Below are positions 21,354 through 39,358 of a DNA stretch of 64,000 nucleotides, in pieces (the stretch's first letter is position 1; each line of letters opens with the position of its first letter). Origin of the DNA: a virus (lineage: Duplodnaviria > Heunggongvirae > Uroviricota > Caudoviricetes); the IMG/VR virus record IMGVR_UViG_3300031994_000056. The stretch is one strand, 5' to 3'. The translations under genes and the position numbers were made by a program. The notes below the pieces were generated by a model. The model did no database searches. It saw only the letters and a program-made list of their open reading frames with translations, and was not told the origin of the DNA.

Positions 21354-21357
21354 TTTT

Positions 21358-22618: not shown

Positions 22619-22634
22619 TATTTAGGAATAAATG

Positions 22635-22958: not shown

Positions 22959-22961
22959 TTT

Positions 22962-23349: not shown

Positions 23350-23380
23350 TAGAGTCCTCTAACCGAATCATATGTAAGTT

Positions 23381-23599
23381 TCATACACCCTCCTTAATTT
23401 CTTCGGTAATAAGTTTAAACACTTCGAGTGGAAGTATGAAGCTTTCTCCACCCCCAACGGGTTCAAGATACATATGATTTTCTGTATTCATATCATAGGA
23501 AACCCTATAGAATGTATTTTCGGGGATCATGGCGGTAGCTGTTCCACTATAACTATAACCAAATCCTTTAAAAATCGACGCTTTAAGTCTTACAATCAT
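23381..23599 (-). CDS. small array protein ending in EGV
   Basis: 72 aa; an 11-codon mini-ORF (MKLTYDSVRGL) bridges to the next gene through ATGA and TAATG overlaps. Confidence 0.5.
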   Translation of the reverse strand: MIVRLKASIFKGFGYSYSGTATAMIPENTFYRVSYDMNTENHMYLEPVGGGESFILPLEVFKLITEEIKEGV

Positions 23600-23600
23600 T

Positions 23601-23777
23601 CTAAACTCCTTTAATTAGTTCTTCGGAAAGTGGTGTGATATCTGCGATATATACAAAAAATTCCCGATTATCCAAACATACTTTGCAGTGCCAGCGACCA
23701 TCTTTTGTGGTCCCAAGAACTTCAAAAATCGTTCCTCTAGGTAATGTATATACATATCCGGTTATAACTCTATACAT
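23601..23777 (-). CDS. small array protein ending in KGV (58 aa, absent from the ORF track)
   Basis: MYRVITGYVYTLPRGTIFEVLGTTKDGRWHCKVCLDNREFFVYIADITPLSEELIKGV; its ATG lies 3 nt after the upstream stop. Confidence 0.5.
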   Translation of the reverse strand: MYRVITGYVYTLPRGTIFEVLGTTKDGRWHCKVCLDNREFFVYIADITPLSEELIKGV

Positions 23778-23780
23778 ATT

Positions 23781-24005
23781 CTAAACTCCGCCCTCAACTT
23801 TCTCTGACAGCCTTATTACTTCATCACCCCATAACCATCCAGACTCCTCTGTCTTTAATGATTTTACTTTTATTTGACATATATTCCTATCCAAAATCTT
23901 AATGGTATCTCCTCTTTTTAACCATCCGATATCTACAGTAACCACTCTTAATTGCCCTTTTATGCGCTTACGTTCTCTTTCTATTGCTTTTAAAAGTTCA
24001 TCCAT
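23781..24005 (-). CDS. small array protein ending in GGV
   Basis: 74 aa; 3-nt spacing to its neighbours. Confidence 0.5.
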   Translation of the reverse strand: MDELLKAIERERKRIKGQLRVVTVDIGWLKRGDTIKILDRNICQIKVKSLKTEESGWLWGDEVIRLSEKVEGGV

Positions 24006-24008
24006 ATA

Positions 24009-24230
24009 TTAAACACCCTCTTCTAATATATCCATATAATCTGTAAAATCTTCTGTAGGTATCCTAAATATATCATGTGAATTCATTATATTCTGTATTT
24101 CTATGAAACTGTCAGATATACTTAAAGTTTCATATAAAGTACCCTTGGGTATCTGTACTACGACGATATCTATACCAGTAGGATCTGTACCAATAGGTCT
24201 AAAATAAATACATTTTGTTATACATAACAT
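24009..24230 (-). CDS. small array protein ending in EGV (start moved to the internal ATG)
   Basis: The ORF track begins at TTG 24266, but TTGTATAAT there is the -10 of an internal promoter. GGAGGT and the ATG at 24230 give MLCITKCIYF... Confidence 0.45.
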   Translation of the reverse strand: MLCITKCIYFRPIGTDPTGIDIVVVQIPKGTLYETLSISDSFIEIQNIMNSHDIFRIPTEDFTDYMDILEEGV

Positions 24231-24257
24231 ATATACCGGTTTACCTCCATAAACCGA

Positions 24258-24287
24258 ATTATACAATACTTCCTATCCAAGTGTCAA
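24258..24287 (-). promoter_or_regulatory. internal consensus promoter on the minus strand (TTGACA-18-TATAAT)
   Basis: Minus-strand ttgacacttggataggaagtattgtataat; GGAGGT ribosome-binding site downstream. Confidence 0.5.
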
Positions 24288-24377
24288 TACTTATACATAA
24301 AGTCGTACGACTAAATGTATAAACAAACCATAAATTCTAATGACTAATTGGTTTTAACCCAAGTATGTTTAGGTTCA

Positions 24378-24584
24378 TTACACACCTTCCCAGATTCTAT
24401 GTACATAACTTGGATCTCTAAACTCTTCATAAGAAAGATGTAGCCGATGGTATTCATTTAGCACACTAACCAGGTTCGCCGAATAATTGTCGGATATGTC
24501 AACTCTCATGACGGTACCTTTCGGTATCATATAGCTATCACGAAAACCTCCCATATATAAATTACGTGTAGTTATACAAAGCAT
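24378..24584 (-). CDS. small array protein ending in EGV
   Basis: 68 aa; a 13-codon mini-ORF (MNLNILGLKPISH) overlaps its stop (TAATG). Confidence 0.5.
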   Translation of the reverse strand: MLCITTRNLYMGGFRDSYMIPKGTVMRVDISDNYSANLVSVLNEYHRLHLSYEEFRDPSYVHRIWEGV

Positions 24585-24587
24585 ATT

Positions 24588-24791
24588 TTACACTCCTTTC
24601 CCATTAACAATTGCTTTTCTTATCCCTTTTATATACCTTAATACCTTCTGATAAGCTTCAATTACTTCCTTATCGGTAGTCTGTAACAGTTCCCTTTCTA
24701 TAAATGCCTTTATATCATCACATACAGCTATCTCATCTGTATAAGTATACGGGCTTTCATTATCAAAAAGATCATCATATAATATACTCAT
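24588..24791 (-). CDS. small array protein ending in KGV
   Basis: 67 aa; AAAGGAGTG at its 3' end serves as the ribosome-binding site of the next gene. Confidence 0.5.
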   Translation of the reverse strand: MSILYDDLFDNESPYTYTDEIAVCDDIKAFIERELLQTTDKEVIEAYQKVLRYIKGIRKAIVNGKGV

Positions 24792-24803
24792 ATTACCTCC
24801 TAA

Positions 24804-24893
24804 TTAATCCAACAGTTTAAGTATAAGTATACAAACTACACCAGCTATACAAACCATACAAATACCACCAAATATAGATTCGGCTATTGTCAT
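24804..24893 (-). CDS. 29-aa hydrophobic peptide, first gene of the minus-strand operon
   Basis: TAAGGAGGGG ribosome-binding site then ATG: MTIAESIFGGICMVCIAGVVCILILKLLD. Confidence 0.35.
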   Translation of the reverse strand: MTIAESIFGGICMVCIAGVVCILILKLLD

Positions 24894-24925
24894 ACCTAGC
24901 CCCTCCTTATATATTAACTATCCGA

Positions 24926-24955
24926 ATTATACAATAATCCAAACTAAAATGTCAA
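24926..24955 (-). promoter_or_regulatory. consensus promoter on the minus strand (TTGACA-18-TATAAT) for the divergent small-gene operon
   Basis: Minus-strand ttgacattttagtttggattattgtataat. Confidence 0.6.
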
Positions 24956-24989
24956 GGGAAATTTATTTTCTCGGGATGTAAAAAAGGCA

Positions 24990-25145
24990 GACGGTTTGGG
25001 AAATTCAAAATCCGTACACGTGCTACATAAGTAAACTATCCAGACAGATTGGAAATTTCGAAATCCGTACATGCGTTCTATATAAACTATATGGTTAAAA
25101 AAGGCGTACGAAAGGGAAAAATCAAAAACCAGACACGCGTTCTTA
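24990..25145. repeat. three imperfect direct repeats of about 60 bp (GGGAAATTCAAAATCCGTACACGYG...TAAACTAT)
   Basis: Copies start near 24999, 25050 and 25113, each preceded by AAAAAAGGC(A/G)(G/T)ACG; they sit in the divergent region between the minus-strand promoter and the gene at 25311. Confidence 0.6.
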
Positions 25146-25310
25146 AAGGGGCAATGACCGCTTAAAGAGGGGGGACCTTCCCCCAAGCGTATCTTACACC
25201 GGAAAAACCCTACCTACCTGGGTCATTTACCTAGTATATACTAAGTAATACCTGGTATAGGCGGGTTATTAATAATGGGGTGGCGCCCCTTACCAGCCAA
25301 GGAGGACATC

Positions 25311-25754
25311 ATGTCCAATACAACAACCTTCCAAGTTCTTAAGAACTTGGTGTTCACTGCTGACATTACAGCAGCATCTTTGGAGACTAAAGTTTCCAGA
25401 AAGACAGGTACTTCGTACCAGCAGTTCAGTACGCCTATTTATTTAGGTGGAGTAAGAGCAGGAGACATTACAGCCTTCGTACCTAAAGCTCCAAAATTGG
25501 TACTCAGAGATGGTGAGTATAAACCCGTATTTATACTTGACTATGAGTATAAAGCATGGGTAAGCTTAAAGGAAGAAGACCTCGGAGACTACAAGATGTT
25601 CTACGAAGGTGACCAGAATCAGCACCACGTAAAAGGCTATTCCAAAGGTGGAATAACCATCTGGGCTTATACGGATATCCAGGATAAGAAAGAAGCTGGA
25701 TTGATAAGAGCTCAGATCGTTCTCAGAACCAGAGGCTTTGCAACCGCAAAGTAA
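25311..25754 (+). CDS. hypothetical protein in the GC-richer island
   Basis: AAGGAGG ribosome-binding site then ATG (MSNTTTFQVL...); about 45% GC against about 28% elsewhere; no motif recognised. Confidence 0.5.
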   Translation: MSNTTTFQVLKNLVFTADITAASLETKVSRKTGTSYQQFSTPIYLGGVRAGDITAFVPKAPKLVLRDGEYKPVFILDYEYKAWVSLKEEDLGDYKMFYEGDQNQHHVKGYSKGGITIWAYTDIQDKKEAGLIRAQIVLRTRGFATAK

Positions 25755-25807
25755 GGTAGGAGCACTGACCAAACCCATCGGCTTCGGTGGGTTTGGATGA
25801 GTGCTTT

Positions 25808-25917
25808 GGAACCTGTAGCTCAGTGGCAGAAGCTTGAAGTGCTCCCTGAAATAACGGGATACAACCGTAACACATGTCCAACGGTGACCCTGGTTCGATT
25901 CCAGGCAGGTTCCACCA
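25808..25917 (+). ncRNA. tRNA-like RNA with an encoded CCA and an extra internal stem-loop (about 110 nt)
   Basis: Acceptor ggaacct/aggttcc then a-CCA; D-arm agct-cagtggcaga-agct; T-arm cctgg-ttcgatt-ccagg; no canonical 7-nt anticodon loop; preceded by the 10-bp hairpin aaacccatcg-gctt-cggtgggttt. Confidence 0.4.
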
Positions 25918-25938
25918 AAATCTCAAAAGGAGGTTATT

Positions 25939-26103
25939 ATGAAAAAATTGATAAACCTATTTTTTATAGTAGGTGCAATAATTATTTATGGCTTAATAGT
26001 TGGAGCGTTCTTTCTGGGAAATGCAAGTGAAATACTATTCCTTATGCTCGGTTTCCTGGGCGGAATCTATATCGCACTTTATTTGACTGTAAAATATTTA
26101 TAG
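25939..26103 (+). CDS. small membrane protein (54 aa, absent from the ORF track)
   Basis: AAGGAGG ribosome-binding site; MKKLINLFFIVGAIIIYGLIVGAFFLGNASEILFLMLGFLGGIYIALYLTVKYL. Confidence 0.45.
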   Translation: MKKLINLFFIVGAIIIYGLIVGAFFLGNASEILFLMLGFLGGIYIALYLTVKYL

Positions 26104-26119
26104 GTAGAAATAATAATCA

Positions 26120-26151
26120 CCCGAGAATATTGACATATCCTTGGGTTTTTT
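26120..26151 (+). terminator. possible intrinsic terminator
   Basis: cccgag ... cttggg stem (G-U wobble) with a 14-nt loop, then tttttt. Confidence 0.3.
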
Positions 26152-26464
26152 GGTAAGCTATTTAGAATGATAAGAATGTTTCCAGAGATTCTTCTGCGGA
26201 ACAATCAAGCGTTTACCGCCTGTCCTATAGCTCGTTACTAGCCTAAGAGTAAGATTGTCAACCCCGACTTACGTGAATACATCTTTCTACATTCACCACT
26301 TATCGTATATGGCTCCACGTCTTTCGATTGATTTTTCAATGTTTTTCTGAGTTTGAAATTATTAACTTATCTCAACTAAGTTCCTTTATCAAAGGTGTGA
26401 AACTTAGAAAAGCACGCTGATACAAAGTGTGCAATTATGATATATTTGTCAAGGGAGGTATGTT

Positions 26465-26617
26465 ATGTTTAAAAGGTATATTATATACGCTCGTAGTGAA
26501 GAACGCACAGATTATGTAACGGAGTTCCGCACTCAGGAAAGTGCAGAGAAGTTCATACAAGATAAAGCTCACGAGTTCCAGGGATGTGAGCTTTATTGCG
26601 TTGTGAAGCATTATTAA
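26465..26617 (+). CDS. hypothetical small protein (50 aa)
   Basis: AAGGGAGG ribosome-binding site; MFKRYIIYARSEERTDYVTEFRTQESAEKF... Confidence 0.35.
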   Translation: MFKRYIIYARSEERTDYVTEFRTQESAEKFIQDKAHEFQGCELYCVVKHY

Positions 26618-26623
26618 AGGAGG

Positions 26624-26758
26624 ATGGAAATGATAATAGTATTAAATGTAGTATTCGGAATTTTATTATTTTGTTACTGTCACTTTATTAACGGTCCAGT
26701 AACAAAAGCTCTAAAGGAGGAACTTAAAGCGTTGGAAGCAAAACGTGTTGAAAAGTAA
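26624..26758 (+). CDS. hypothetical small membrane protein (about 44 aa)
   Basis: AAAGGAGG ribosome-binding site; M(EM)IIVLNVVFGILLFCYCHF... Confidence 0.3.
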   Translation: MEMIIVLNVVFGILLFCYCHFINGPVTKALKEELKALEAKRVEK

Positions 26759-26796
26759 ACGCGTTTTGAAAATTTTGAAATCGACTTGCGATTTCT

Positions 26797-26880
26797 TTCT
26801 TGGGAAGGAGGCAGACCCAAGCGTAGCACTTGAGAGTAGTTCACTCTCATCCAAGCCTTAGTTTGCTTGGTGTGTCTGCT
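26797..26880. repeat. large inverted repeat (15-bp stem, 14/15 matched) enclosing two internal hairpins
   Basis: gggaaggaggcagac ... gtctgcttccttccc; internal pairs gagag/ctctc and ccaagc/gcttgg. Confidence 0.55.
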
Positions 26881-26888
26881 TCCTTCCC

Positions 26889-26949
26889 TGTGTATAAGTA
26901 GGAAAGTTATACACAAGTTATTCACAACCTGTGGATAAGCTGTGTATAA
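26889..26949. promoter_or_regulatory. cluster of five DnaA boxes (TTATNCACA) overlapping a candidate promoter for the plus-strand small-gene array
   Basis: tgtgtataa at 26889-26897 (minus), ttatacaca at 26907-26915 (plus), ttattcaca at 26918-26926 (plus), tgtggataa at 26930-26938 (minus, perfect TTATCCACA), tgtgtataa at 26941-26949 (minus). A ttcaca -35 and tataac -10 lie among them. Confidence 0.6.
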
Positions 26950-26995
26950 CTGGATTACGATAGTAAGACTATAACTTAAGGATAGGAGGGATAAT

Positions 26996-27205
26996 ATGCC
27001 AAACATAAATAGAGTAATTGTAGTATGCAAAACATTGCTTAAGTATAAGCTAAAAGGGTTAATAGATGAACATGATGATACCATAATAACCAGTATGTTC
27101 TATCATATGGATTTAGATAGTTTAACTAGGAATGATTGGGAGTATGTAATAGAACAGTTGGTTGCAGAGTGTGTATATTTGGAATTCTGTACATGTTTAA
27201 AATAA
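26996..27205 (+). CDS. hypothetical protein, first gene of the plus-strand array
   Basis: GGAGGG ribosome-binding site; 69 aa. Confidence 0.5.
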   Translation: MPNINRVIVVCKTLLKYKLKGLIDEHDDTIITSMFYHMDLDSLTRNDWEYVIEQLVAECVYLEFCTCLK

Positions 27206-27217
27206 AGGAGGTAACCT

Positions 27218-27400
27218 ATGAATACCTATATGAAGAAAGATTCGGTGATACATTTAGATGATGCTACGATAGTAGTTAGGGAAGGCAAATGTGAAACCTG
27301 TTGTTTTTTCAATGAGTTTTCAACTGATCACTGTACTATTCGTAATAAGTGTAGAGTATCATTAGGGTTGCATTATGAGAGGCTGGAAGGAGGTGTGTGA
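27218..27400 (+). CDS. small Cys-rich array protein (CxxC), ends LEGGV
   Basis: VREGKCETCCFF motif; its stop overlaps the next ATG (GTGTGATG). Confidence 0.55.
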   Translation: MNTYMKKDSVIHLDDATIVVREGKCETCCFFNEFSTDHCTIRNKCRVSLGLHYERLEGGV

Positions 27401-27663
27401 TGATACAAATTGAAGAATGGTATATGTATGGTAAGAAGTACTACACCATTGAATATAACGGTAAAACATATATAGCTAGGAAATCAAATATGCCCTGTAA
27501 AGCTTGTGCATTCGTAAGTAATATATCACCAAGCGGATATTTTACTGATAGAGTGTATTGTAAGCTTCCTAATACACTCCGAACAAAAGAACTTATGTGT
27601 CCGCTTCACGTAGCATTTCCAAACGAGAATAAAGTATTTGTGGAAGTGATAGGAGGTGTGTGA
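27397..27663 (+). CDS. small Cys-rich array protein, ends IGGV
   Basis: PCKACAF motif; ATGA overlap. Confidence 0.55.
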   Translation: MMIQIEEWYMYGKKYYTIEYNGKTYIARKSNMPCKACAFVSNISPSGYFTDRVYCKLPNTLRTKELMCPLHVAFPNENKVFVEVIGGV

Positions 27664-27968
27664 TGGAGGACTTTAGAGAAGCATTTAAGAAGTATATAGA
27701 AGGTGTTGCTACAGAGAAAATAAATAAGATTGCGAGAAAAAGTGCGAAACGTTTTAAACAGAACCAAATACTAGAGCTTGATGGTGTGAAAGTTATGATA
27801 CAAAAAGGAGCTTGTGGGAATGGAGGATGCTACTTTAGTAGGGAAAGAACCAGTAAGATATCCGGGAAATATATAGGCAGAGTTTGTATGGCACGGTTTC
27901 ATTGTTATAAAATACTTAAGGAGCTTCATGGTAAGTATCATTTTATTTGTGTTGAAGGAGGGGTATGA
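27660..27968 (+). CDS. small Cys-rich array protein, ends EGGV
   Basis: IQKGACGNGGCYFS motif. Confidence 0.55.
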   Translation: MMEDFREAFKKYIEGVATEKINKIARKSAKRFKQNQILELDGVKVMIQKGACGNGGCYFSRERTSKISGKYIGRVCMARFHCYKILKELHGKYHFICVEGGV

Positions 27969-28150
27969 TGGCAAAATATAAGATGGGAGATAAAATAACT
28001 TATGGAAAGGCAAGACTTACAGTGGTGAAAGGAAAATGTGAGGATTGCTACTTCTCGACTCCTTATGGTTGCATGTCAGTATTTATTGAAGGCTGTGCAA
28101 GTACACTTGGGTTTGATTTGATATTCATTCCTACAAGAAAGGGGGTATAA
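27965..28150 (+). CDS. small Cys-rich array protein (family VxKGxCxxCYF), paralog 1
   Basis: MMAKYKMGDKITYGKARLTVVKGKCEDCYFS...; 61 aa, ends KGV. Confidence 0.6.
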   Translation: MMAKYKMGDKITYGKARLTVVKGKCEDCYFSTPYGCMSVFIEGCASTLGFDLIFIPTRKGV

Positions 28151-28335
28151 TGATAACAAAATATAAGATAGGTGATAGATTAACTTATGGAAAGACAAGA
28201 CTTATAGTAGTTAAAGGTAGCTGTAAGAATTGCTACTTCTCAGCCCCTCATGGTTGCATGGCAAAGTTTGCTGGAATCTGTGCAAGTACACTTGGGTTTA
28301 ATCTAAAATTTATACCTGTGGGAAAGGGGGTATGA
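28150..28335 (+). CDS. small Cys-rich array protein, paralog 2 (about 66% identical to the previous gene)
   Basis: MITKYKIGDRLTYGKTRLIVVKGSCKNCYFS...; 40 of 61 positions identical by manual alignment. Confidence 0.6.
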   Translation: MITKYKIGDRLTYGKTRLIVVKGSCKNCYFSAPHGCMAKFAGICASTLGFNLKFIPVGKGV

Positions 28336-28336
28336 T

Positions 28337-28531
28337 ATGCCAAGATATAAAGTAGGTGAAAGAATAGTTGTAGGAGCGGTTGAAGCCGTTGTAGTTCGTG
28401 GAAACTGCGAAAGTTGTTTCTTTAGTAGACATATTTTTCTATATAAAACAGAATGTATGTTGGATGAAGAAAGCTGTATAGAAGAAATCGGTTTTGGTAA
28501 CTGCTATAAAGTATTGAAAAAAGGGCTTTAG
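28337..28531 (+). CDS. small Cys-rich array protein, paralog 3
   Basis: MPRYKVGERIVVGAVEAVVVRGNCESCFFS... Confidence 0.55.
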   Translation: MPRYKVGERIVVGAVEAVVVRGNCESCFFSRHIFLYKTECMLDEESCIEEIGFGNCYKVLKKGL

Positions 28532-28576
28532 GGTTGGTCGCCTAAATGTACCTAATATATAGACCTGGAGGATGTT

Positions 28577-28948
28577 ATGAATAGAAGACTTAAAGATGTG
28601 TTTGCAGGTGCAGTAGTAAAGGTAGTAAGTAGCGGAGTTTATCGAGATAGCGGTAATAAGTACTGCGAAGTCTCAATAAACGGTAAGAAGCTCGGACAAA
28701 GATTTAATTCCTTTATCAATGTAAGATGTAAAGGGGGGTATTCGGACTTTCAAAGACAGAAACTCGTTGTTGCTTCCGATGACTTTATGAAAGATGGAAG
28801 CATACAGGTGTATGGCGTAAAGTTTGATTTGGAAGAAAGGGTTAGCCGTAAGAACGAGAAATATCTTGCCATACTTAAAGATGGTAAGAAAATCGGCTAC
28901 TATGTAAACGAAAAACAGAGGGCTTGCTTTAATAACCTTTGTTTGTAG
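28577..28948 (+). CDS. hypothetical protein
   Basis: 123 aa; GGAGG ribosome-binding site. Confidence 0.5.
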   Translation: MNRRLKDVFAGAVVKVVSSGVYRDSGNKYCEVSINGKKLGQRFNSFINVRCKGGYSDFQRQKLVVASDDFMKDGSIQVYGVKFDLEERVSRKNEKYLAILKDGKKIGYYVNEKQRACFNNLCL

Positions 28949-28957
28949 GGAGGTACC

Positions 28958-29224
28958 ATGTATAAATATATACAAAAGGAATATGATGCGTGGCGTAAAG
29001 CAGATAGAGCATTGAGAAACAAGATTATTTCATATCTGGATGGTTTGCATATGCAAATAGATATGGAACTCGTGCTTGATGGAACGGAAGAAATACTGCT
29101 GTTCGTTGAAATTAAAGAAGGTGTACTTATAACAGATCACGGTGAAAGATATTCATACTCAAGCTTCTCTACAGGAGAACTTCTTGAAGTATATGAAAAA
29201 CTGTATAAACAAGGAGGTATATAA
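28958..29224 (+). CDS. hypothetical protein, ends QGGI
   Basis: 88 aa. Confidence 0.5.
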   Translation: MYKYIQKEYDAWRKADRALRNKIISYLDGLHMQIDMELVLDGTEEILLFVEIKEGVLITDHGERYSYSSFSTGELLEVYEKLYKQGGI

Positions 29225-29490
29225 TGAAACTAACGGTGTTGAAAGCTTTGGAGAACCTACCTGAAGGTCTAGAGCTGGAGTATGAAGCAGTTGAACAAAA
29301 GATTACTATCAGCACAGACTTTGCAGATAGAGAAGGGTTTGAAGTGTTTGATGCACATGTAAATGACCTTATCAGGAAATTTGAAGGTAAGGGATGTAAG
29401 GTTTATTTTGATACTATAACAAATAAAAAGTTTAACGAAGTATTACAGCATAGAAGATATGTTGCAATGAAAAAGGAGGAAAAATGTTAA
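29224..29490 (+). CDS. hypothetical protein
   Basis: 88 aa; overlapping start. Confidence 0.5.
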   Translation: MKLTVLKALENLPEGLELEYEAVEQKITISTDFADREGFEVFDAHVNDLIRKFEGKGCKVYFDTITNKKFNEVLQHRRYVAMKKEEKC

Positions 29491-29837
29491 AATTAGTAAC
29501 AAGTAACAAAGTAATTGAAGGCAGAAAGAATTGGGAAATGCATCCCGAAATAAAAGTAGGGATGAATAAGATTAAGAAATGGTTGGAAAAGAAAGCTCAA
29601 ACTAAAGAAGAAACAACTGTCTTTAGCTATAATCCAATACTGTTTCGCATCGGACTATTACTTAAACTTAAAGGCGAGAAAGTTAGTTTCGCCTATATTG
29701 GAAGTAATAAAGAAGAGGAAGTAATGGTAGATGATTTAGGTTACTTTGTGAATTGTCCAAGTCATTTCTTGGATATGTATGAAGATATTCAAAGGGAAAT
29801 AATAGATATAAGGACTGAAAGAAAAGGAGGTATGTAA
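29484..29837 (+). CDS. hypothetical protein, ends KGGM
   Basis: 117 aa. Confidence 0.5.
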   Translation: MLKLVTSNKVIEGRKNWEMHPEIKVGMNKIKKWLEKKAQTKEETTVFSYNPILFRIGLLLKLKGEKVSFAYIGSNKEEEVMVDDLGYFVNCPSHFLDMYEDIQREIIDIRTERKGGM

Positions 29838-30611
29838 ATGGGTATACAAATAGAACCAAAGTTTTTTCATACCGCAATTGACTATGGTAATTTCGCCTTG
29901 TTTGATAAGTTACTTAATGAAGTTGACCCATCTAACTGGAAGAACCAAAAGAAGATGGAAATACTTTTCAGGTTTCACTATCCAAATAGTAAATATGTAA
30001 GTTATTTTACCGTTGAAAGATATAAGAACCTAATAAACACTCTTAAGATAAATTTAAATAGTACTTGCTATGGATACACACCGTTAACCCATCTCATGGG
30101 TTGGTATGATAGCTGGCGTATAAAAGAAACTGAACACGGTAAAGGACTTATGGATTATTTACTTAGCCGTAATGATGTTGAAATTAACAAACCAGACAGA
30201 AATCGAGGCTTTCCTATACTTCAATGCTATCTTATGAGTGTTAATAGTGATGAGGAGTTTAATAAAGAATTTATTGAAAGACTGAAAGGTCTTGGAGCAA
30301 ATCTTAATTGGTGTGATAAGAGAGGTCAGAATTTATTACATAAGATATGTAATTTCAATTACTATTATGGTAATAGAAATACAAGGTTATTGAAATATTT
30401 GATATTTAGCACAGACATTAACTTTGAAAAGAAGGATAAGGATGGTAATACTCCTTTAGACTTAGCTGAGAAATCCATTTTAGATGAGGAAATAGCATAT
30501 CAAAAAGCTATGGCACAACAATCAAGGTATTACACTCCTACAAGAGAGTCAGTTGAAAAGGCAATTGCAATAAGAGATATACTTAAGAGCAGAATAAAAG
30601 GAGGTATATAA
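29838..30611 (+). CDS. ankyrin-repeat-like protein, ends KGGI
   Basis: Recurring ankyrin-like units: GYTPLTHLMGW, RGFPILQCYLMS, RGQNLLHKICN and DGNTPLDLAEKS. Confidence 0.45.
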   Translation: MGIQIEPKFFHTAIDYGNFALFDKLLNEVDPSNWKNQKKMEILFRFHYPNSKYVSYFTVERYKNLINTLKINLNSTCYGYTPLTHLMGWYDSWRIKETEHGKGLMDYLLSRNDVEINKPDRNRGFPILQCYLMSVNSDEEFNKEFIERLKGLGANLNWCDKRGQNLLHKICNFNYYYGNRNTRLLKYLIFSTDINFEKKDKDGNTPLDLAEKSILDEEIAYQKAMAQQSRYYTPTRESVEKAIAIRDILKSRIKGGI

Positions 30612-30851
30612 ATGAATACAAAGGAGTCTATAGAAGATAGATTAGAGGGATTGGAGAAACAAGTCCTTATGTTAAGCGTTGCAATGGGACTTGTGATGAA
30701 GATTATGCGAGATAAAGGTATGGTAGATTTAGATCAACTCGCAAAAGATGCAGCAGAAGATGTGTTAAAGAAAGAAAATGACTCTGGTAAGGAGGCAGAG
30801 TACGAAGATGTGCTTAAGAAGTTTGAAGTAAAGAAGGAAAATTTAAATTAG
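30612..30851 (+). CDS. hypothetical acidic protein
   Basis: 79 aa. Confidence 0.45.
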   Translation: MNTKESIEDRLEGLEKQVLMLSVAMGLVMKIMRDKGMVDLDQLAKDAAEDVLKKENDSGKEAEYEDVLKKFEVKKENLN

Positions 30852-30867
30852 AAAGGAGAGAAAGTAA

Positions 30868-31218
30868 ATGGAAGTACTAGTAATTATTTTAGCAGTAGTA
30901 GTGTTAATTGAAGTGGTTGTATTCTCTGGTTGGCAAGTTCATCAAATCAATAAAAGGATAGATGGTATCATGAAAATCTTTGATACACAATTCAGGATAC
31001 TTGAAATTATTAAATCCAAAATAAAAGGGATTGATGATGATATCTTGCATGTAGCAGAGGGTTTGGATGCAACTCAAGATGTATTACAAAGTTCAATGGA
31101 TATTCATGATAGGTTCGTTGACTTTGTAAAAGAGAAATGTATAATGAAAAAAGAAAAAATTACTAAAGAAGTAAAGAAGAAAAGTAAAAGAGGAAGACCT
31201 AAAAAAGATACTAAGTAG
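30868..31218 (+). CDS. membrane-anchored protein with a basic AT-hook-like tail
   Basis: N-terminal TM helix; C-terminal KKSKRGRPKKDTK. Confidence 0.45.
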   Translation: MEVLVIILAVVVLIEVVVFSGWQVHQINKRIDGIMKIFDTQFRILEIIKSKIKGIDDDILHVAEGLDATQDVLQSSMDIHDRFVDFVKEKCIMKKEKITKEVKKKSKRGRPKKDTK

Positions 31219-31229
31219 TATTGTATTTT

Positions 31230-31254
31230 GCTCCCTTGCTAAATGTAAGGGAGC
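31230..31254 (+). terminator. hairpin that splits the array (possible terminator/attenuator)
   Basis: gctccctt-gctaaatgt-aagggagc 8-bp stem; no clean U-tract. Confidence 0.3.
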
Positions 31255-31284
31255 TTAATAGAATATTATCTAAGGAGAAAACCT

Positions 31285-31521
31285 ATGACTAAATATGTTG
31301 AAGGTAGTATAATAAAAACTAAGTCAGGTGTATCATTAGTTGTACGCAAAAAAGTATGTAAGAAAACCTGTACACATGATTGTTATTTTGGAAAGTATAT
31401 TGACAGTTCCAACTACTATTGCAAAGTTGTATTATATACACATGAGTTAGGAGAGGATGACCAATGTGGGTTTGTTATTCCTGAGGGTTGTTGCTTCAAA
31501 ATACTTAAAGGAGGAATTTAA
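31285..31521 (+). CDS. small Cys-rich array protein, ends KGGI
   Basis: VRKKVCKKTCTHDCYF...CGFVIPEGCCF. Confidence 0.55.
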   Translation: MTKYVEGSIIKTKSGVSLVVRKKVCKKTCTHDCYFGKYIDSSNYYCKVVLYTHELGEDDQCGFVIPEGCCFKILKGGI

Positions 31522-31523
31522 TT

Positions 31524-31802
31524 ATGATAATAACAAAATTAAATAATACAACCTTCATTTGTGAAAGCTCTGTAAATAATGTTAAGTATTTAATTAGATT
31601 TGTAAAAGGTGTTGATCACTGTCAACATTATTGTTGCTTTGCTTCTTATTGTACTAAACATGGAGCATTTGGTAATACAAAAGCTATGTTAAAATATTTT
31701 GGATTAGAAAATACTTGGTGTGGCGAGTTATTTAATAAACTTAAAACTGATACTAACCAAGGTTTTTTACGCTACTTTGTTAAACTAGAAGGAGGTTTAT
31801 GA
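31524..31802 (+). CDS. small Cys-rich array protein, ends EGGL
   Basis: HCQHYCCFASYC. Confidence 0.5.
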   Translation: MIITKLNNTTFICESSVNNVKYLIRFVKGVDHCQHYCCFASYCTKHGAFGNTKAMLKYFGLENTWCGELFNKLKTDTNQGFLRYFVKLEGGL

Positions 31803-32173
31803 TGAATGATAAAATAGTAGAAGATATTAGAGGTAATAAGTTTAAGGTCATAGATAGTAAAGAGAATATAGAGTATAGTTCTTGTAAGAAATGTGACGCA
31901 AATTATGGTTCTGATTATTGTTCATTATGTAATTATGATTGTAGTAGTACTGTTGGTGAATATCTAAAGTTAATAGAGGAAGATAAGAGATTAAAGTTAG
32001 GAAGTACAATAAATATAAATGATATATCCTACGTAGTTACAAAAGGAAATTGTGAAGACTGTGAGTTTAATGAACCAAAAATATCTGATGAGAGTCCTTA
32101 TCGTTGCAAACTAAAAGGTTATCATTGTAATGGAAAAGGAATATGCTTAAAGCATTTTAATGGAGGTATATAA
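31799..32173 (+). CDS. small Cys-rich array protein with two CxxC modules, ends NGGI
   Basis: SCKKCDANYGSDYCSLCNYDC ... VTKGNCEDCEF ... CKLKGYHCNGKGIC. Confidence 0.55.
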   Translation: MMNDKIVEDIRGNKFKVIDSKENIEYSSCKKCDANYGSDYCSLCNYDCSSTVGEYLKLIEEDKRLKLGSTININDISYVVTKGNCEDCEFNEPKISDESPYRCKLKGYHCNGKGICLKHFNGGI

Positions 32174-32388
32174 TGTATAAGATAAATACCAGAGATAAAG
32201 TTAGAGTGCTTAAGTTAGGTGAGACTGTTTGGCTTGATGGTAAGATAGTTCAAGTTGCAAATGTACCTTGTTTTAAATGTTGTTTCTTTAAACTTGGATT
32301 TTGTACAATGTCATTTCCTTGTGATGAACTTGTAGGTAAATATAACTTATATAGATTTGCATTTATAGAAATTAAAGGAGGTGTTTAA
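32173..32388 (+). CDS. small Cys-rich array protein, ends KGGV
   Basis: VANVPCFKCCFFKLGFC. Confidence 0.55.
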   Translation: MYKINTRDKVRVLKLGETVWLDGKIVQVANVPCFKCCFFKLGFCTMSFPCDELVGKYNLYRFAFIEIKGGV

Positions 32389-32707
32389 TATGAGAACATT
32401 TCCAATAGAATACTTTTTTAAACCAGAGAGTTTAAAGAAAGGTGATAGGATTAAACTAAGTGAAACTGATTTTATTCTGATTGCAGATACAATTCAATTA
32501 GAGTCTGATAAGATAATATCAATGGCTCAAGATTGGTGTGGAAAATATTGTGACTTAAATAACAATGGATGTGTCACAATAATAAAAAACTATATGTCCA
32601 ATGAAGAATATGAAAACAATAAATGGAAAACATGTCATATGTATTTTTATGATGAAAATGATATAGCTTGGGGACATGTATATAAGTTAATTAAAGGAGG
32701 TATTTAA
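32381..32707 (+). CDS. small array protein, ends KGGI
   Basis: 108 aa; CGKYCDLNNNGC. Confidence 0.5.
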   Translation: MFNMRTFPIEYFFKPESLKKGDRIKLSETDFILIADTIQLESDKIISMAQDWCGKYCDLNNNGCVTIIKNYMSNEEYENNKWKTCHMYFYDENDIAWGHVYKLIKGGI

Positions 32708-32708
32708 A

Positions 32709-32960
32709 ATGGCATTTAAAAAAGGTCATGTTATTAAAACAAAAGTAGGTTCGTTTATAGTTGACTATATTGGATATGATACGATAGGTAAATTTATAAA
32801 AGTTTCTAATTGTCGTAAATGTGATGTATTTAAAATTATGTCTAAACAAAAACAACAAAGTTGTAATACAATTTTAAATGTATTACTTAAAATACCATCA
32901 GAATTAGGATGTCCTTTATCAATGGGATATGGGTTTAAAAAAATTAAAGGAGGTATGTAA
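32709..32960 (+). CDS. small Cys-rich array protein, ends KGGM
   Basis: VSNCRKCDVFKI. Confidence 0.5.
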   Translation: MAFKKGHVIKTKVGSFIVDYIGYDTIGKFIKVSNCRKCDVFKIMSKQKQQSCNTILNVLLKIPSELGCPLSMGYGFKKIKGGM

Positions 32961-33208
32961 TGAAAGTTAAAGAAGAAATCCCATCTAAAATATTAAAGGT
33001 TGAAACATTAAAAAACGATAACCGTGTTGCAGTTATAACGCATGATATTAATAAAAATAGATGTAGTGAATTGTGTTACTTTAAAGTATATAAACAACAT
33101 CAAGGAGGTTGGAGATGCCATCATGAAAGAGTACAAAAAGAATTAGGATATTGTTCAACTGGAGCTGGAAGCCACTACATTAAAATAAATCTAAAAGGAG
33201 GTATATAA
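32960..33208 (+). CDS. small Cys-rich array protein, ends KGGI
   Basis: CSELCYFKVY...WRCHH...GYC. Confidence 0.5.
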   Translation: MKVKEEIPSKILKVETLKNDNRVAVITHDINKNRCSELCYFKVYKQHQGGWRCHHERVQKELGYCSTGAGSHYIKINLKGGI

Positions 33209-33211
33209 ATA

Positions 33212-33352
33212 ATGACAGAACAAACAGTAGTTAATACATTAGCAATAATGGGGTTAGTTGGATTTGGTTTAGCATTAGTAACTCTATTTATTTGGATGTG
33301 GGTTTTGGCGTATGACTTTTATAAAACAATAATAAAGGAGGGTGAGAAATGA
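33212..33352 (+). CDS. 46-aa membrane peptide (absent from the ORF track)
   Basis: MTEQTVVNTLAIMGLVGFGLALVTLFIWMWVLAYDFYKTIIKEGEK; its stop overlaps the next ATG (ATGA). Confidence 0.4.
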   Translation: MTEQTVVNTLAIMGLVGFGLALVTLFIWMWVLAYDFYKTIIKEGEK

Positions 33353-33957
33353 AAAACTTAAATGAAGTAATGTTGTACTTGGACTGTCCAAGGAAGTACA
33401 GTTTTGAAAAAGTTGGATTGAAAAAAGGAAAAAGTGACAACGATAAAATGAAACAAAAAGTAAAGGAGGCAATTAGTAAATATCTGGAAACAGAAATGAC
33501 TGACTTGCAATTTGCAGATGAAGTTGGTACAATATCACATGGCAAGACAGTTGTAAAGGTCGATGGTTTATATAATCTAATTAAAGAGAATAAGGATAAG
33601 CTCTTAGATAAAGATTATATATTGACAGTTGTTCTTAAGACACCCACAGATGGATATGAAAAAAGCTTGTATTATAATATCCATCAAGTAATTAATTGTG
33701 AGAATAAAGAGTTAAAGTTCAATGTAATTGTTCTTAATGTTAATCCAAAGTTAGAACAGATTATATTAAAACCAAGAACAGAAGCACAGGTAAAAGAAAT
33801 AAATGAGCTTGTGAAATCTGTTGATAGGTTAATTGATATGGTAGAAAAGGAACAGCTTGTGTACATCAAACGACCTAACAACATAACTTGTAGTAGTTGT
33901 GTTTACAATGCAGAATGTAAACCAATATGTTTTACAAGGGAGGTTAAGGATGAGTAA
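33349..33957 (+). CDS. Cas4/RecB-family PD-(D/E)xK nuclease with an Fe-S cluster cysteine signature
   Basis: N-terminal LYLDCPRKYSF plus C-terminal CSSCVYNAECKPIC gives the Cas4-type C...CxxC...C pattern; internal VKVDGL / VVLKT. Confidence 0.55.
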   Translation: MKNLNEVMLYLDCPRKYSFEKVGLKKGKSDNDKMKQKVKEAISKYLETEMTDLQFADEVGTISHGKTVVKVDGLYNLIKENKDKLLDKDYILTVVLKTPTDGYEKSLYYNIHQVINCENKELKFNVIVLNVNPKLEQIILKPRTEAQVKEINELVKSVDRLIDMVEKEQLVYIKRPNNITCSSCVYNAECKPICFTREVKDE

Positions 33958-34123
33958 TATAAGTGAAACACTCAAGAAAGAATTAAATGAGTTAAAACAA
34001 ACGGAACTTAATATTCAAAAGAAAAAAGATGAACTTGTATCTTTAATTGATAGTCATTTAGAGTCTGTAAAAAAAGAAAGGATGCAAGCTGAAAAGATTT
34101 ACAAATCTTTAATAAGGAGGTAA
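33950..34123 (+). CDS. hypothetical coiled-coil protein (start moved to the ATG after GGAGG)
   Basis: MSNISETLKKELNELKQTELNIQKKKDELV... Confidence 0.4.
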   Translation: MSNISETLKKELNELKQTELNIQKKKDELVSLIDSHLESVKKERMQAEKIYKSLIRR

Positions 34124-34365: not shown

Positions 34366-35457
34366 ATGTTATTATCAGAAATCAAAAATGTAGTAAAAGA
34401 ATTATGTCAGAATGGTTGCAAAGTAAACTTATGTCTTAAAGGACATCAAGGAATTGGTAAGACTCAAATCTTACAACAGGTAGCAGAAGAACTTGGTTGG
34501 GATTATAAAGCAATATATTGTGCTCAAACTTCTACGGAAGATTTAATTGGTATGCCAAAGATTGTAGAGAATAAAGATGGTACTTTCTCTACGGAGTTTG
34601 CAAAACCAACTCTGTTTCCAACTAAAGAGAATACAATTTTTGTATTGGAAGAAATTAACAGAGCTCCGTTGGAAGTTCAACAATCTGTATTACAGTTACT
34701 TACAGATAAAAAGATTGGTAATTTTGTATTACCAAAGAACACATTGATATGTGCTTGTATCAATCCTACAGACTCAATCTATATGACACAAGAGTTAGAT
34801 TCTGTATTTGTTAATAGAATGGTAACGATTGATGTTGAAACAAATATAGAGGAGTTCTGTAATTATGCAGAAAAGAAAGGAGTTAGTCAAGACATTATTA
34901 ACTTCATAGGTTCTTTGAATAGTTCTCAAGCAGCGATACATTTCATACCAAAACCTTCAGAGAATACAATAGGTAAACCTATGGCGTCACCAAGAACTTG
35001 GATGATAGCAGATAGTATCCTAAAATTGAATGTGAGTGATAATGTATTAGCTCAGATGTTAAGTGGTGCAATTGGTAAAGAAACTGCAACGTTCTTTTTA
35101 ACTACAAGAAGTAAGTTAGATAAGTTAATAAACATTGAAGCAGTTATTAAAAGTTATGATAAATTAAAATCTAAAATAGAAAAGCAAAGTGATGGAACTT
35201 TATTGAAGACAGTGAATGATTTTGCGGATGTATTGAACAACCAAGAGAAAGCGAAAACATATTCAGACGATGAGATAAACAATATGGGTAAGTTTATTGA
35301 ATACTTGTATAACAATAACAAAGCATTGGCTTCAATGTTGTATCAAAAGATAACAGACTTATCTAAGGATAGTTTGTTAAAGAGAATACATAAAACATAT
35401 CAATCAGAGAAAAAGATTATAGCAATGTTGACTGAAGTAGGTACAAGTATAAAATAA
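34366..35457 (+). CDS. MoxR-like AAA+ ATPase
   Basis: Walker A GHQGIGKTQ and Walker B / sensor VLEEINRAP (the MoxR/CbbQ-type DEINRA motif). Confidence 0.7.
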   Translation: MLLSEIKNVVKELCQNGCKVNLCLKGHQGIGKTQILQQVAEELGWDYKAIYCAQTSTEDLIGMPKIVENKDGTFSTEFAKPTLFPTKENTIFVLEEINRAPLEVQQSVLQLLTDKKIGNFVLPKNTLICACINPTDSIYMTQELDSVFVNRMVTIDVETNIEEFCNYAEKKGVSQDIINFIGSLNSSQAAIHFIPKPSENTIGKPMASPRTWMIADSILKLNVSDNVLAQMLSGAIGKETATFFLTTRSKLDKLINIEAVIKSYDKLKSKIEKQSDGTLLKTVNDFADVLNNQEKAKTYSDDEINNMGKFIEYLYNNNKALASMLYQKITDLSKDSLLKRIHKTYQSEKKIIAMLTEVGTSIK

Positions 35458-35469
35458 AGGAGGACAAAG

Positions 35470-36756
35470 ATGGGAATAGAAAGAGTTAATAATTGTATAA
35501 ACAAATTAGCATTTAACTTTGAAACTCTTTGGTTTCTTGACGTCCTTTATAACATTAACATTGAGGTACTGGATGCTGAGAAGTGTCCAGCACCTACAGC
35601 TTGTGTAATGTTTAAAGACTTCAAGATTAATATGTTCTTTAACAAAGAGTTCATTGATAAGTTAAATGATGATGAGTTATTAGGTTTAATACTTCATGAA
35701 ACATTACATTTATCTTTGTATCATAATGTTAGAAATAAAAATAAAAATGGACAGTTATGGAACATAGCTTGTGATTTAGAAGTAAATTCTATAATAAATA
35801 GTTTAGGATTTAAATTACCTGAAGGTGGTTTAATGCCACAGAAAGACTTTAATTTACCTACAAGATTGAGTGCTGAAAATTACTATGACCAAATCTATAA
35901 AGAGTTAGAACAGCAAATGCAAAATGGTAAGGGTAAAGGTAATGGAAGTGGAGTTGGTATTAGTATAGAAGGTAAATGTACATTAGATAGCCATGACCAT
36001 TGGAGCAAAACTGAAAGTGAAAGTGAGTTGGTAAAACAAGTTATAGATAGTGTGGTTAAGTCAGCGATAGAAAAGAATGCACAAGATATTGAGAAGTCTT
36101 CTATAAAAGATAATATTACTTCAGCATTGAAAGATGCAAATGGTATGAAGAAAAGTAGTAGGTATGGTAATAGTCCAGGAGATTTTATATCAAAGGTTAA
36201 AGTTACAGGTAATGGTAAAGTTAAATGGAATTTCATATTGAATAGACTTATAAGAAAAACATTATCTTCAAACTATCTTTCTTCCTTTAAAAGAACTTCA
36301 AGAAGATATGGAGAACTTGTTAAAGGTAAGATTAAAAACCATAAGATAGATAATATTATTGTAGCTGTAGATACTTCAGGAAGTATAGATGAAAAACTTC
36401 ACGAAAGATTTATGGAAGAAATAATATTAATCAGAAGAATGTTTAAGGTAGAGATAAGATATATTCAATGTGATACAGAGATAACACAAGACATTAAGTT
36501 GAAAAGATATACAGACATAGAGAACATTGAAATTAAAGGTGGTGGTGGTACAGACTTTGTTCCTGTGTTTGAGTATATCAAACAGAAACATTATACTCCA
36601 AATGCAATATTATATTTCACAGATGGTCAAGGAAGATATCCAGAGAAATCTAATATAGATACACTTTGGATATTAAGTGATGATGATTGCTTAAGATATG
36701 GAGATGCACCACCGTTTGGATATAAGTTATTCTTAAATGAAAAAAATGAAAAATAA
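35470..36756 (+). CDS. VWA-domain protein with an N-terminal HExxH metallopeptidase-like domain (DUF2201-like partner of the MoxR ATPase)
   Basis: HETLH motif; MIDAS motif VAVDTSGSI; C-terminal GGGGTDFVPVFEY. Confidence 0.6.
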   Translation: MGIERVNNCINKLAFNFETLWFLDVLYNINIEVLDAEKCPAPTACVMFKDFKINMFFNKEFIDKLNDDELLGLILHETLHLSLYHNVRNKNKNGQLWNIACDLEVNSIINSLGFKLPEGGLMPQKDFNLPTRLSAENYYDQIYKELEQQMQNGKGKGNGSGVGISIEGKCTLDSHDHWSKTESESELVKQVIDSVVKSAIEKNAQDIEKSSIKDNITSALKDANGMKKSSRYGNSPGDFISKVKVTGNGKVKWNFILNRLIRKTLSSNYLSSFKRTSRRYGELVKGKIKNHKIDNIIVAVDTSGSIDEKLHERFMEEIILIRRMFKVEIRYIQCDTEITQDIKLKRYTDIENIEIKGGGGTDFVPVFEYIKQKHYTPNAILYFTDGQGRYPEKSNIDTLWILSDDDCLRYGDAPPFGYKLFLNEKNEK

Positions 36757-39070: not shown

Positions 39071-39358
39071 GTGACTATGGAAAAAGAAGAATGGAAACAG
39101 TTAATGGGGGATGAAGAACTTACAGTCATAGCCTTTGAAGTTCTGAAACTTAAAGTTGGTGATGTTATTTCTACAAAGTCTGGTGAATTGGTTAAAGTAG
39201 TAAAAGGTAAATGTCAAGAATGTAGGTTTCGTTTGAATAGAGGTATGGTATTTTGTGAATGTTATAAAGATATAGACGAGAAATATTTGTTATACAATAG
39301 TTGTAATTTAGAAGCAGATCAAAAGTTTGTAAGTATAAAATCAAATAAAGGATTATAA
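39071..39358 (+). CDS. small Cys-rich array protein (VxKGxCxxC family)
   Basis: GELVKVVKGKCQECRF...FCECY. Confidence 0.55.
   Translation: MTMEKEEWKQLMGDEELTVIAFEVLKLKVGDVISTKSGELVKVVKGKCQECRFRLNRGMVFCECYKDIDEKYLLYNSCNLEADQKFVSIKSNKGL

Follow-up and report, generated by a model that had tools for sequence, protein, structure and literature searches.

An array of small, closely packed genes with ribosome-binding sites in their last codons and a four-cysteine paralogue family in a large uncultured tailed phage

Layout of the array and the ribosome-binding sites in its last codons

The 64,000-nucleotide stretch of tailed-phage (Caudoviricetes) DNA analysed here (IMG/VR record IMGVR_UViG_3300031994_000056; hereafter the window) carries at positions 27218-33352 an array of 21 plus-strand genes, designated g01 through to g21, whose deduced products range from 46 to 257 aa, as defined from the list of open reading frames (ORFs) and the junction sequences (Table 1). 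A separate gene caller applied to a public contig (L001, offset 24365) returned identical coordinates for the array genes. The distances between consecutive genes, from g01 to the downstream gene g22, are -1, -1, -1, -1, +1, +45, +9, -1, -7, 0, 0, +16, +66, +2, -4, -1, +1, +1, -1, +3 and -4 nt. Except for the gaps of +45, +9, +16 and +66 nt, all junctions (17 of 21) thus fall within -7 to +3 nt and display the stop/start overlap or very short spacer by which coupled gene pairs are recognised. The first-pass annotation of this DNA, made from the sequence alone, had described about 20 tightly packed small genes, in agreement with this layout.

Table 1. Genes of the array, family members outside it and selected neighbouring genes. 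A5 denotes the 59-sequence family profile described in the text; E-values refer to A5 unless indicated otherwise. SD, Shine-Dalgarno sequence; TM, transmembrane.
Gene or feature	Position	Strand	Length (aa)	C-terminal tail	Description
g01	27218..27400	+	60	EGGV	Four-Cys member; TGA overlaps next ATG by 1 nt; E=4e-11
g02	27400..27663	+	87	IGGV	Family member; E=1e-3; hhalign 92%
g03	27663..27968	+	101	EGGV	Helical N-terminal extension and family domain; E=3e-8
g04	27968..28150	+	60	RKGV (SD AAGGGGG)	Family core member; E=6e-19; protein modelled
g05	28150..28335	+	61	GKGV	Tandem duplicate of g04 (66% identity); blastp 3e-30
g06	28337..28531	+	64	KKGL	Family member; tail present despite 45 nt to next gene; E=1e-12
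Block B (g07-g13)	28577..31218	+		g08 QGGI; g10 KGGM; g11 KGGI	Seven non-family genes; conserved backbone of the region
g11	29838-30611	+		KGGI	Ankyrin repeats (Pfam Ank_2 5e-9)
g13	30868-31218	+		Basic	TM helix at N-terminus
g14	31285..31521	+	78	KGGI	Family member (7 Cys); E=1.5e-8
g15	31524..31802	+	92	EGGL	Cys-rich, possible distant member; hmmsearch E=1.4; hhalign 50%
g16	31799..32173	+	124 (123 from second ATG)	NGGI	Two tandem family domains; E=2e-8
g17	32173..32388	+	71	KGGV	Family member; E=2e-15; L006 orthologue 75% identical
g18	32390..32707	+	105	KGGI	4 Cys; membership unsupported; no profile hit; hhalign 1%
g19	32709..32960	+	83	KGGM	4 Cys; membership not supported; hmmsearch E=0.9; hhalign 9%
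g20	32960..33208	+	82	KGGI	Probable member; E=4e-3; hhalign 66%
g21	33212..33352	+	46	IKEGEK	Predicted membrane peptide; own embedded SD for g22
Family member outside array	39077..39358	+	93	NKGL	Contains ..VVKGKCQECRF..; E=3e-7
Family member outside array	40789-41079	+	96	KEGV	E=3e-5
Family member outside array	41076-41351	+	91	KGGV	E=6e-5
MoxR-type AAA ATPase (AAA_5), then DUF2201_N/VWA-like protein	34366-36756				Directly downstream of array; pair kept in all related phages
Protein with Hint and LAGLIDADG homing-endonuclease domains	17848-19419		523		Probably intein-containing gene

The array genes are further marked by their C-termini, as 13 of the 21 (g01, g02, g03, g08, g10, g11 and g14-g20) end in GG[VILM] and three more (g04-g06; Shine-Dalgarno (SD) sequence AAGGGGG) in KG[VL]. 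In the GG-tailed genes the last codons hold a AAGGAGGT-type SD, the Gly-Gly codons being GGA-GGN, and at 16 junctions GGAGG or GGGGG is located 5-9 nt ahead of the next ATG, within the last 3-4 codons. The proposal that these codons also contain the ribosome-binding site for the following gene was therefore borne out, since all sixteen tails contain the GGAGG/GGGGG core; the accompanying wording that almost every gene ends in GG[VILM] was slightly overstated. GG-aliphatic tails are enriched in the array (13/21) compared with the rest of the window (9/91; Fisher p=1.4e-6).

Such tails are nevertheless found well beyond the array. About a quarter of the window proteins end in Gly-aliphatic; of the 30 tails of this kind, 26 lie at an SD embedded for the abutting gene, and 47 of 77 embedded SDs are in frame as GGA-GGN. 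Carriers that are unrelated to the four-cysteine family described below include g08, g10 and g11 as well as the genes ending at 19781, 38253, 40303, 40789, 51740 and 55888, and GG-aliphatic tails are also present on the genes ending at 37678 and 41351. In two related phages (L003 and L011) the pattern runs throughout their 20-kb loci. Among the controls, 50 kb of phage SPO1 contained one GGX tail (KGGR) and 50 kb of Clostridium phage c-st, a poor control with few tight junctions, contained two (GGE and GGC), while three other gut-phage loci encoding the outer branch of the family had none. The internal domains of two-domain family proteins end in ..YLKLIEE or ..YYKVVNE without a tail, as in g16, where the internal domain ends ..YLKLIEED without Gly-Gly and the terminal domain ends NGGI. 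As the tail occurs on unrelated proteins and is missing from both the internal domains and the outer family, it follows the need for an SD and not the family: it is a clade-wide idiom, specific to neither family nor array. Separately, two unrelated genes were observed to share an identical 16-nt junction (TAGACGGAGGAGTATA, tail DGGV; 19766-19781 and 51725-51740), which might reflect junction copying.

The Gly-Gly pair arises because the extended SD, AAAGGAGGT, is read in the frame AAA-GGA-GGT; the other frames would encode AGG-AGG (Arg-Arg) or GAG-G.. tails, and GGA and GGT are ordinary Gly codons. Most prokaryotes typically have an intragenic SD at -4/-1 overlaps, with strong use in Firmicutes and Fusobacteria (PMC6728339), and termination-reinitiation at such overlaps is established (Huber et al. 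2019, PMC6728339; review PMC12548453). The array junctions resemble these termination-reinitiation pairs (PMC6728339) in having a 4- or 1-nt overlap or a 0-3 nt gap, with the SD in the upstream 3' end, and differ from described intragenic SDs in their fixed GGA-GGT frame, followed by exactly one further sense codon and a V/I/L/M end. Placing a ribosome-binding site in this way, within the closing codons of the preceding gene, is therefore a known principle applied with unusual uniformity, and no new system. The first-pass annotation could assign neither the family nor this architecture to a described system, which holds for the family (no Pfam, NCBIfam or PDB relative) but not for the embedded SDs (PMC6728339).

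The small ORFs might, in principle, be a by-product of AT-rich sequence with scattered GGAGG instead of genes, given that the proteins are very short and without database annotation, and that their calling depends on ORF and SD logic. This reading is effectively refuted: several diverged phages retain these ORFs intact, four Cys residues are invariant in 59 sequences, the ratio of nonsynonymous to synonymous divergence (dN/dS) is below 1 for most pairs, each gene is preceded by a strong, correctly spaced SD, and the other frames lack competing ORFs of comparable length.

Membership, fold and distribution of the four-cysteine family

The family unit comprises ~60 aa, with four invariant Cys across 59 aligned sequences, and consists of a Y-K-x-G-D/E-x-I hairpin, the motif V-V-K-G-x-C-x-x-C-x-F, a third Cys 6-12 residues past the CxxC motif, a fourth Cys 5-12 residues further on and a final [FY]-K-x-[ILV] strand. 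All-against-all BLASTP strongly joined g04, g05 and g06, to which g01, g03, g14, g16 and g17 connect (g04-g05, 3e-30; g04-g06, 1e-10; g04-g16, 5e-6; g01-g16, 2e-5). Membership was further assessed with a profile of the 59 sequences (A5), built without g02, g03, g15, g16, g18, g19 and g20 and run on the 520 six-frame ORFs of the window, and with hhalign comparisons as a second test for g02, g15, g18, g19 and g20. The controls g07, g08 and g10 gave no hit or no significant hit with A5 and 0.1-6% with hhalign, indicative of non-members.

By these comparisons, nine array genes (g01-g06, g14, g16 and g17) and three genes outside the array are considered firm members, g20 a probable and g15 a possible one, while homology of g18 and g19 to the family found no statistical support in either the A5 search or hhalign. 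The three outside members, located within 39-41 kb, were added by the A5 search, and one of them contains the sequence VVKGKCQECRF, which had mistakenly been listed as part of the array. Similarity beyond Cys spacing, set beforehand as the test of true paralogy, was evident from blastp values down to 3e-30 and from the left-out genes g02, g03, g16 and g20, which were recovered at 4e-3 to 2e-8. The paralogous family is thus real, with nine firm array members, and narrower than had been claimed, g18 and g19 being unsupported.

Cys accounts for 6.3% of the family codons compared with 1.6% in large genes, and is encoded by TGT in 54 of 67 cases in the Cys-rich gene block. The Cys pattern suggests that the domain most likely binds one metal ion. 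The first-pass annotation had taken these proteins for small zinc ribbons, an identity that is not upheld: a zinc ribbon has two zinc knuckles of the CxxC/CxxH type, each carried by a beta-hairpin, in a three-stranded sheet around one Zn, whereas the family has a single CxxC, the putative ligands 3 and 4 being lone Cys residues separated by 6-12 residues. In the AlphaFold2 model of g04 (mean predicted local distance difference test score 78.8), Cys 3 and 4 are positioned at the starts of two short helices, an arrangement that in this predicted structure appears closer to a treble clef than to a zinc ribbon. A sequence profile search of PDB with the family returned nothing below E=0.5.

A basic isoelectric point (8.7-9.8) was calculated for g02-g05, g14, g15, g17, g19 and g20, which, together with the apparent small Cys4 metal-binding type of domain and the DnaA-box cluster and conserved non-coding DNA just upstream of the array, would be in keeping with a role as small regulators that bind nucleic acid, be it DNA or RNA of phage or host, as opposed to takeover or anti-defence factors. 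We regard this as improbable, as g01, g06, g16 and g18 are acidic or neutral, regulators tied to fixed operators do not typically diverge and change in copy number so fast, and the family has no match to a known DNA-binding fold.

Searches of Pfam, PHROGs and NCBIfam with the family members and block B recognised the ankyrin protein g11 alone; the family members likewise had no PDB or INPHARED match, and tblastn of g04 and the outer-family protein P0085 against 50,697 phage records found none. A word-seeded search of 5.8 billion proteins yielded 21 family proteins in all, and a HMMER scan of 1.84 billion representatives, the family-profile search that the first-pass annotation had proposed, yielded 20 matches at E<=1e-3. 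Almost all of these are orthologues on a handful of related phage contigs, and the family therefore appears, on these searches, to be nearly restricted to a small clade of metagenomic phages of ~160-300 kb.

A more distant, outer family, with the signature KLKVVE..CxGCYF..C..C..RxDxKNVIFKE, is bridged to this clade by the proteins P0032, P0033 and P0055 (~60 aa), the first two of which were reached by the window-clade profile A2 among the 1.84e9 proteins (2.3e-5 and 3.5e-5, respectively). This wider family has no Pfam or NCBIfam model and matches phrog_33085 (unknown function) weakly, with 25 of the 59 aligned sequences at 1e-6 to 6e-3, while ten array proteins scanned directly against the phrog_33085 HMM gave no match even at E<=1. 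P0032 and P0033 themselves match phrog_33085, a joint alignment of window-clade and outer sequences retains all four Cys, and homology of the array family to phrog_33085 is thus supported through intermediate sequences.

The phrog_33085/outer proteins and the array family have in common their length, the four invariant Cys, the logic of their spacing, the N-terminal hairpin and the final hydrophobic strand. Unlike the array family, the outer proteins are single-copy or paired, are encoded on Bacteroidota-associated contigs and end in RxD..VIF (..VIFKEVKE) in place of GG-aliphatic. They occur in phage or prophage contexts, with nine of ten genome matches in Bacteroides, Prevotella, Muribaculaceae or related Bacteroidota; the Bacteroides/Prevotella group makes hardly any use of SDs (PMC6728339). 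The array family would accordingly represent a new, narrowly distributed and distant branch of an uncharacterised phage protein family.

Turnover among related phages and the strictly aliphatic last residue

The array was compared with three related phages that share its backbone. Backbone genes are relatively well conserved (g07, 67-73% identity; g10, 73-78%; the ankyrin gene g11, 45-57%; g22, 89%), block B orthologues being 45-78% identical in L003 and L006. By comparison, most family members are only 30-48% identical between relatives, or are missing, extra or reordered, except for g17 (75%) and g20 (84-87%). The dN/dS values of the family (0.16-1.0) compared with those of the backbone and MoxR genes (0.06-0.24) are indicative of relaxed constraint, a rough contrast as several synonymous divergence (dS) values are saturated. 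For g20, dS was 0.10-0.15, compared with 0.7-3 in its neighbours, which suggests a recent exchange of this gene.

Whole-gene differences were also observed. A three-way DNA alignment with two related phages showed g21 to be an insertion exactly between the SD/stop of g20 and the ATG of g22. In L006 the order of g17 and g18 is swapped and two extra genes are located exactly at the junction of the g16 and g17 orthologues. From the position of these insertions, each gene appears to behave as a cassette, which begins at its own start codon and closes with an SD and stop that are used by the following gene.

It is possible, though rather unlikely in our view, that the junction string (AAAGGAGGTRTRTRATG) is itself a recombination linker, whose microhomology drives cassette duplication, deletion and shuffling. 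Such a process would explain why the paralogues expanded and why unrelated genes end in uniform tails, and is consistent with the precise g21 insertion, the changed order and precise insertions in L006, the unit-length boundaries of the g04/g05 tandem duplicate and the mosaic dS around g20. Motif-mediated modular shuffling also has a precedent in the hyperplastic regions of T4-type phages, where PeSL motifs have been proposed to promote it (PMC2839356, PMC4122927). Like the array, those regions contain small, mostly orphan and probably early genes, with whole-gene indels or replacements bounded by a short recurring motif. The T4-type motif is, however, a promoter and stem-loop between genes, whereas here it would be the SD/stop/start junction itself, without intergenic DNA; an early promoter and stem-loop do not flank each variable gene of the array, a single candidate being present at 31222-31264. 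Moreover, junction identity amounts to only ~10-17 nt and is degenerate, purifying selection would leave breakpoints at gene boundaries anyway, the last codon is fixed at position 2 and variable at positions 1 and 3, which argues for selection and not copying, and no intermediates were observed. The data are compatible both with junction microhomology driving these events and with selection retaining those that respect gene boundaries.

The codon between Gly-Gly and the stop specifies I, V, L or M at 58 of 58 junctions from five loci, and the last residue of GGX-stop tails is V/I/L/M in 53 of 54 cases in the window, L003 and L011; many of the counted junctions are orthologous, and the independent cases number a few dozen. 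A T at position +3 after GGAGG, i.e. the middle base of this codon, is present in 45 of 47 embedded GGA-GGN sites, compared with 19 of 61 free-standing SDs and 7 of 30 in other frames (Fisher p~1e-12), while the first and third bases of the codon are free to vary. As the middle base is set and the reading frame constant over SD-to-ATG spacers of 5-10 nt, the constraint is on the codon or amino acid and not on the ribosome-binding site. Various accounts of the rule were rejected: the T is not part of an extended SD, as free-standing SDs lack it; the aliphatic codon is not an alternative start, being 1 nt from the SD and in many cases GTA, TTA or CTC; and avoidance of +1 frameshifting, as at prfB, would bar only slippery codons such as AAA and hence does not fully explain it.

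V, I, L and M are generally depleted at bacterial C-termini, where they reduce expression through faster degradation (PMC7246954), a tendency that the aliphatic rule opposes. No description of such a rule was found in the literature, nor was it seen in the control phages examined, and it is the sole surprising residue of this analysis. One explanation, which we consider possible but fairly doubtful, is that the peptide end [K/E]-G-G-aliphatic functions as a signal in its own right in this phage clade (for stability, a C-terminal reader or termination/re-initiation) and that its coincidence with the SD is secondary. The near-invariance of the last residue and of the middle T, along with the contrary trend at bacterial C-termini, is in line with this, as is the finding that nine non-family window proteins obey the rule without exception (p~5e-6 at bulk V/I/L/M frequency). 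G-aliphatic tails furthermore persist where they have no SD role, as in g06 and L006_762 (both KKGL, with a 45-nt gap), in the KEGL, DDGI and DHGL tails of relatives, and in L008_4115, whose EGGI tail is encoded by GGT-GGT with a separate SD past the stop. Conversely, all but four of the 30 G-aliphatic tails in the window are located where an SD for the adjoining gene is embedded, the tail is missing from internal domain copies and from the outer family, the tailed proteins otherwise have nothing in common, no bacterial factor known to read GG-aliphatic C-termini was found, and orthology among junctions means that the counts are not independent.

A joint reading, which we deem unlikely, would make the [K/E]-Gly-Gly-aliphatic tail a selected dual-purpose element that serves as the ribosome-binding site of the next gene and also has a peptide role, such as half-life tuning, recognition by a host or phage factor, or efficient termination-reinitiation; the uniform junction would then yield plug-and-play cassettes that speed the shuffling of takeover or counter-defence genes.

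Genomic setting and proposed role of the array

The window matches a 161,575-bp metagenomic contig (ENA ERZ27256871 k141_305185), and a 300-kb assembly also carries proteins identical to those of the window. A near-identity search with the DNA at 27000-34000 found no match among the 50,697 phage records, and identity of its MoxR protein to those of cultured phages does not exceed 27%, with no close INPHARED phage. On the basis of these DNA and MoxR searches, the window is part of a large (at least 161 kb, in one assembly 300 kb), AT-rich, uncultured tailed phage. The neighbouring MoxR ATPase gave no match when scanned against IMG/VR, nor did a MoxR alignment against GTDB genomes. Given the consistently strong GGAGG sites and the group patterns reported for SD usage (PMC6728339), we infer an SD-dependent host, such as a member of the Firmicutes or Fusobacteria.

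G+C content is ~27% across the window, with 34-37% at 20000-30000, which covers the tRNA cluster, a minus-strand module and the first half of the array, and 24-30% elsewhere. Recognisable genes include those for an intein-bearing protein, an SPFH protein, the MoxR-type AAA ATPase and its VWA partner, a RuvB-like ATPase and glycosyltransferases, as well as six tRNA genes at 20.3-21.1 kb. The N- and C-terminal RuvB domains of the RuvB-like protein (47333-49177) are ~450 residues apart, suggestive of a second insertion. Rfam detected nothing at 20-34 kb beyond the known tRNAs.

The DNA ahead of the array contains several non-coding features. Five DnaA-box-like 9-mers, including the only perfect TTATCCACA of the window, are clustered within 61 bp at 26889-26949, ~270 bp ahead of the array, where the DNA shows 75-84% conservation among related phages; their window-wide number (24, with 27 expected) is not above chance, whereas the clustering is striking. 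Non-coding DNA at 26185-26459 is 96% identical to that of L003, compared with 70-87% in flanking genes, has no Rfam match and an ordinary folding energy (z=-0.9), and may be regulatory or origin-related. A tRNA-like element at 25808-25917, just upstream of the Cys-rich block, has a perfect acceptor stem, D and T arms and an encoded CCA, with ~31 extra nt between the arms; it was missed by default ARAGORN and by Rfam, was reported as 'tRNA-Cys(aca)' with a 31-nt intron by ARAGORN in intron mode, and shows a 9-nt anticodon-like loop and a long extra arm in its minimum-free-energy fold. In the divergent intergenic region at 24980-25140, three imperfect direct repeats of ~55 nt (..AAAAAAGGC..GGGAAA(T/A)TCAAAA(T/C)C(C/A)G(T/A)ACACG..) adjoin a perfect TTGACA-18-TATAAT on the minus strand (24955-24926).

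Promoter candidates were noted at 24887-24915, 31118-31145 and 31236-31264. The second of these, inside g13, is an 11/12 consensus promoter (TTGACT-16-TATAAT), and the third, TTGCTA-17-TAGAAT, overlaps an 8-bp hairpin (GCTCCCTT..AAGGGAGC; 31222-31264) in the 66-nt gap before g14. In view of these two sites, the last part of the array (block C) may have its own promoter.

Overall, we consider it probable that the locus is a hypervariable accessory block of coupled cassettes, with fast-evolving four-Cys paralogues that may have a role in host interaction. The array would probably be transcribed as one or two polycistronic messages. The extended SD of the next gene (AAA/GAA-GGA-GGT) encodes Lys/Glu-Gly-Gly in the frame of the upstream gene, with a single sense codon left before the stop, and terminating ribosomes or fresh 30S subunits could start the next gene 0-4 nt on. 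Cassettes could then be inserted, deleted, duplicated or reordered at the junctions without breaking translation. About half of the genes represent a lineage-specific expansion of the ~60-aa domain (beta-hairpin, CxxC-x-F, two Cys and final strand). Fast evolution and turnover of these paralogues fit proteins that would bind variable host targets in takeover or counter-defence, and we propose, with modest confidence, that the family comprises accessory host-interaction proteins. Divergence, copy-number turnover, clade restriction, small size, a predicted metal scaffold with variable loops, and ankyrin and membrane-peptide neighbours are all typical of phage accessory genes and, by analogy, point to such a role. 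Early expression is plausible from the position of the array, which is preceded by a strand switch, long non-coding DNA and the DnaA-box cluster.

Several observations weigh against this account. SDs of this strength could just as well allow each gene to be initiated independently of the one before it, and Sigma-70-like promoter sites are not enriched (50, with 43+/-6 expected). Indel breakpoints at gene boundaries would also be expected from selection alone, dS saturation makes the dN/dS contrasts rough, structure searches found no characterised neighbour for the family, and the embedded SD leaves the obligatory aliphatic end unexplained.

The SPO1 takeover module (gp37-gp60) is comparable in comprising ~25 small genes of mostly unknown function in a large Firmicute phage and in its location beside a genome end or replication-related region. 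The SPO1 genes differ in having promoter-bearing gaps, no paralogy, no GG-aliphatic tails and no sequence similarity to the array. Turnover, divergence and small size are in keeping with the resemblance to takeover or anti-defence modules proposed in the first-pass annotation; the family has no match to characterised takeover or anti-defence proteins in Pfam, PHROG, NCBIfam, PDB or INPHARED. The observation behind that annotation was confirmed and its interpretation partly supported.

If the aliphatic-end rule reflects a real constraint, be it on protein stability, termination or re-initiation, these phages would provide a clean natural data set, in which dozens of unrelated proteins share a three-residue tail, for the poorly understood question of how the last codons of a gene influence its product and also the expression of the gene that follows. 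With the four-Cys family comes a further fast-turnover, clade-restricted set of small phage proteins, and it is in such sets that takeover and anti-defence factors are usually sought; with 12-14 paralogues within 64 kb, it represents a compact screening target.

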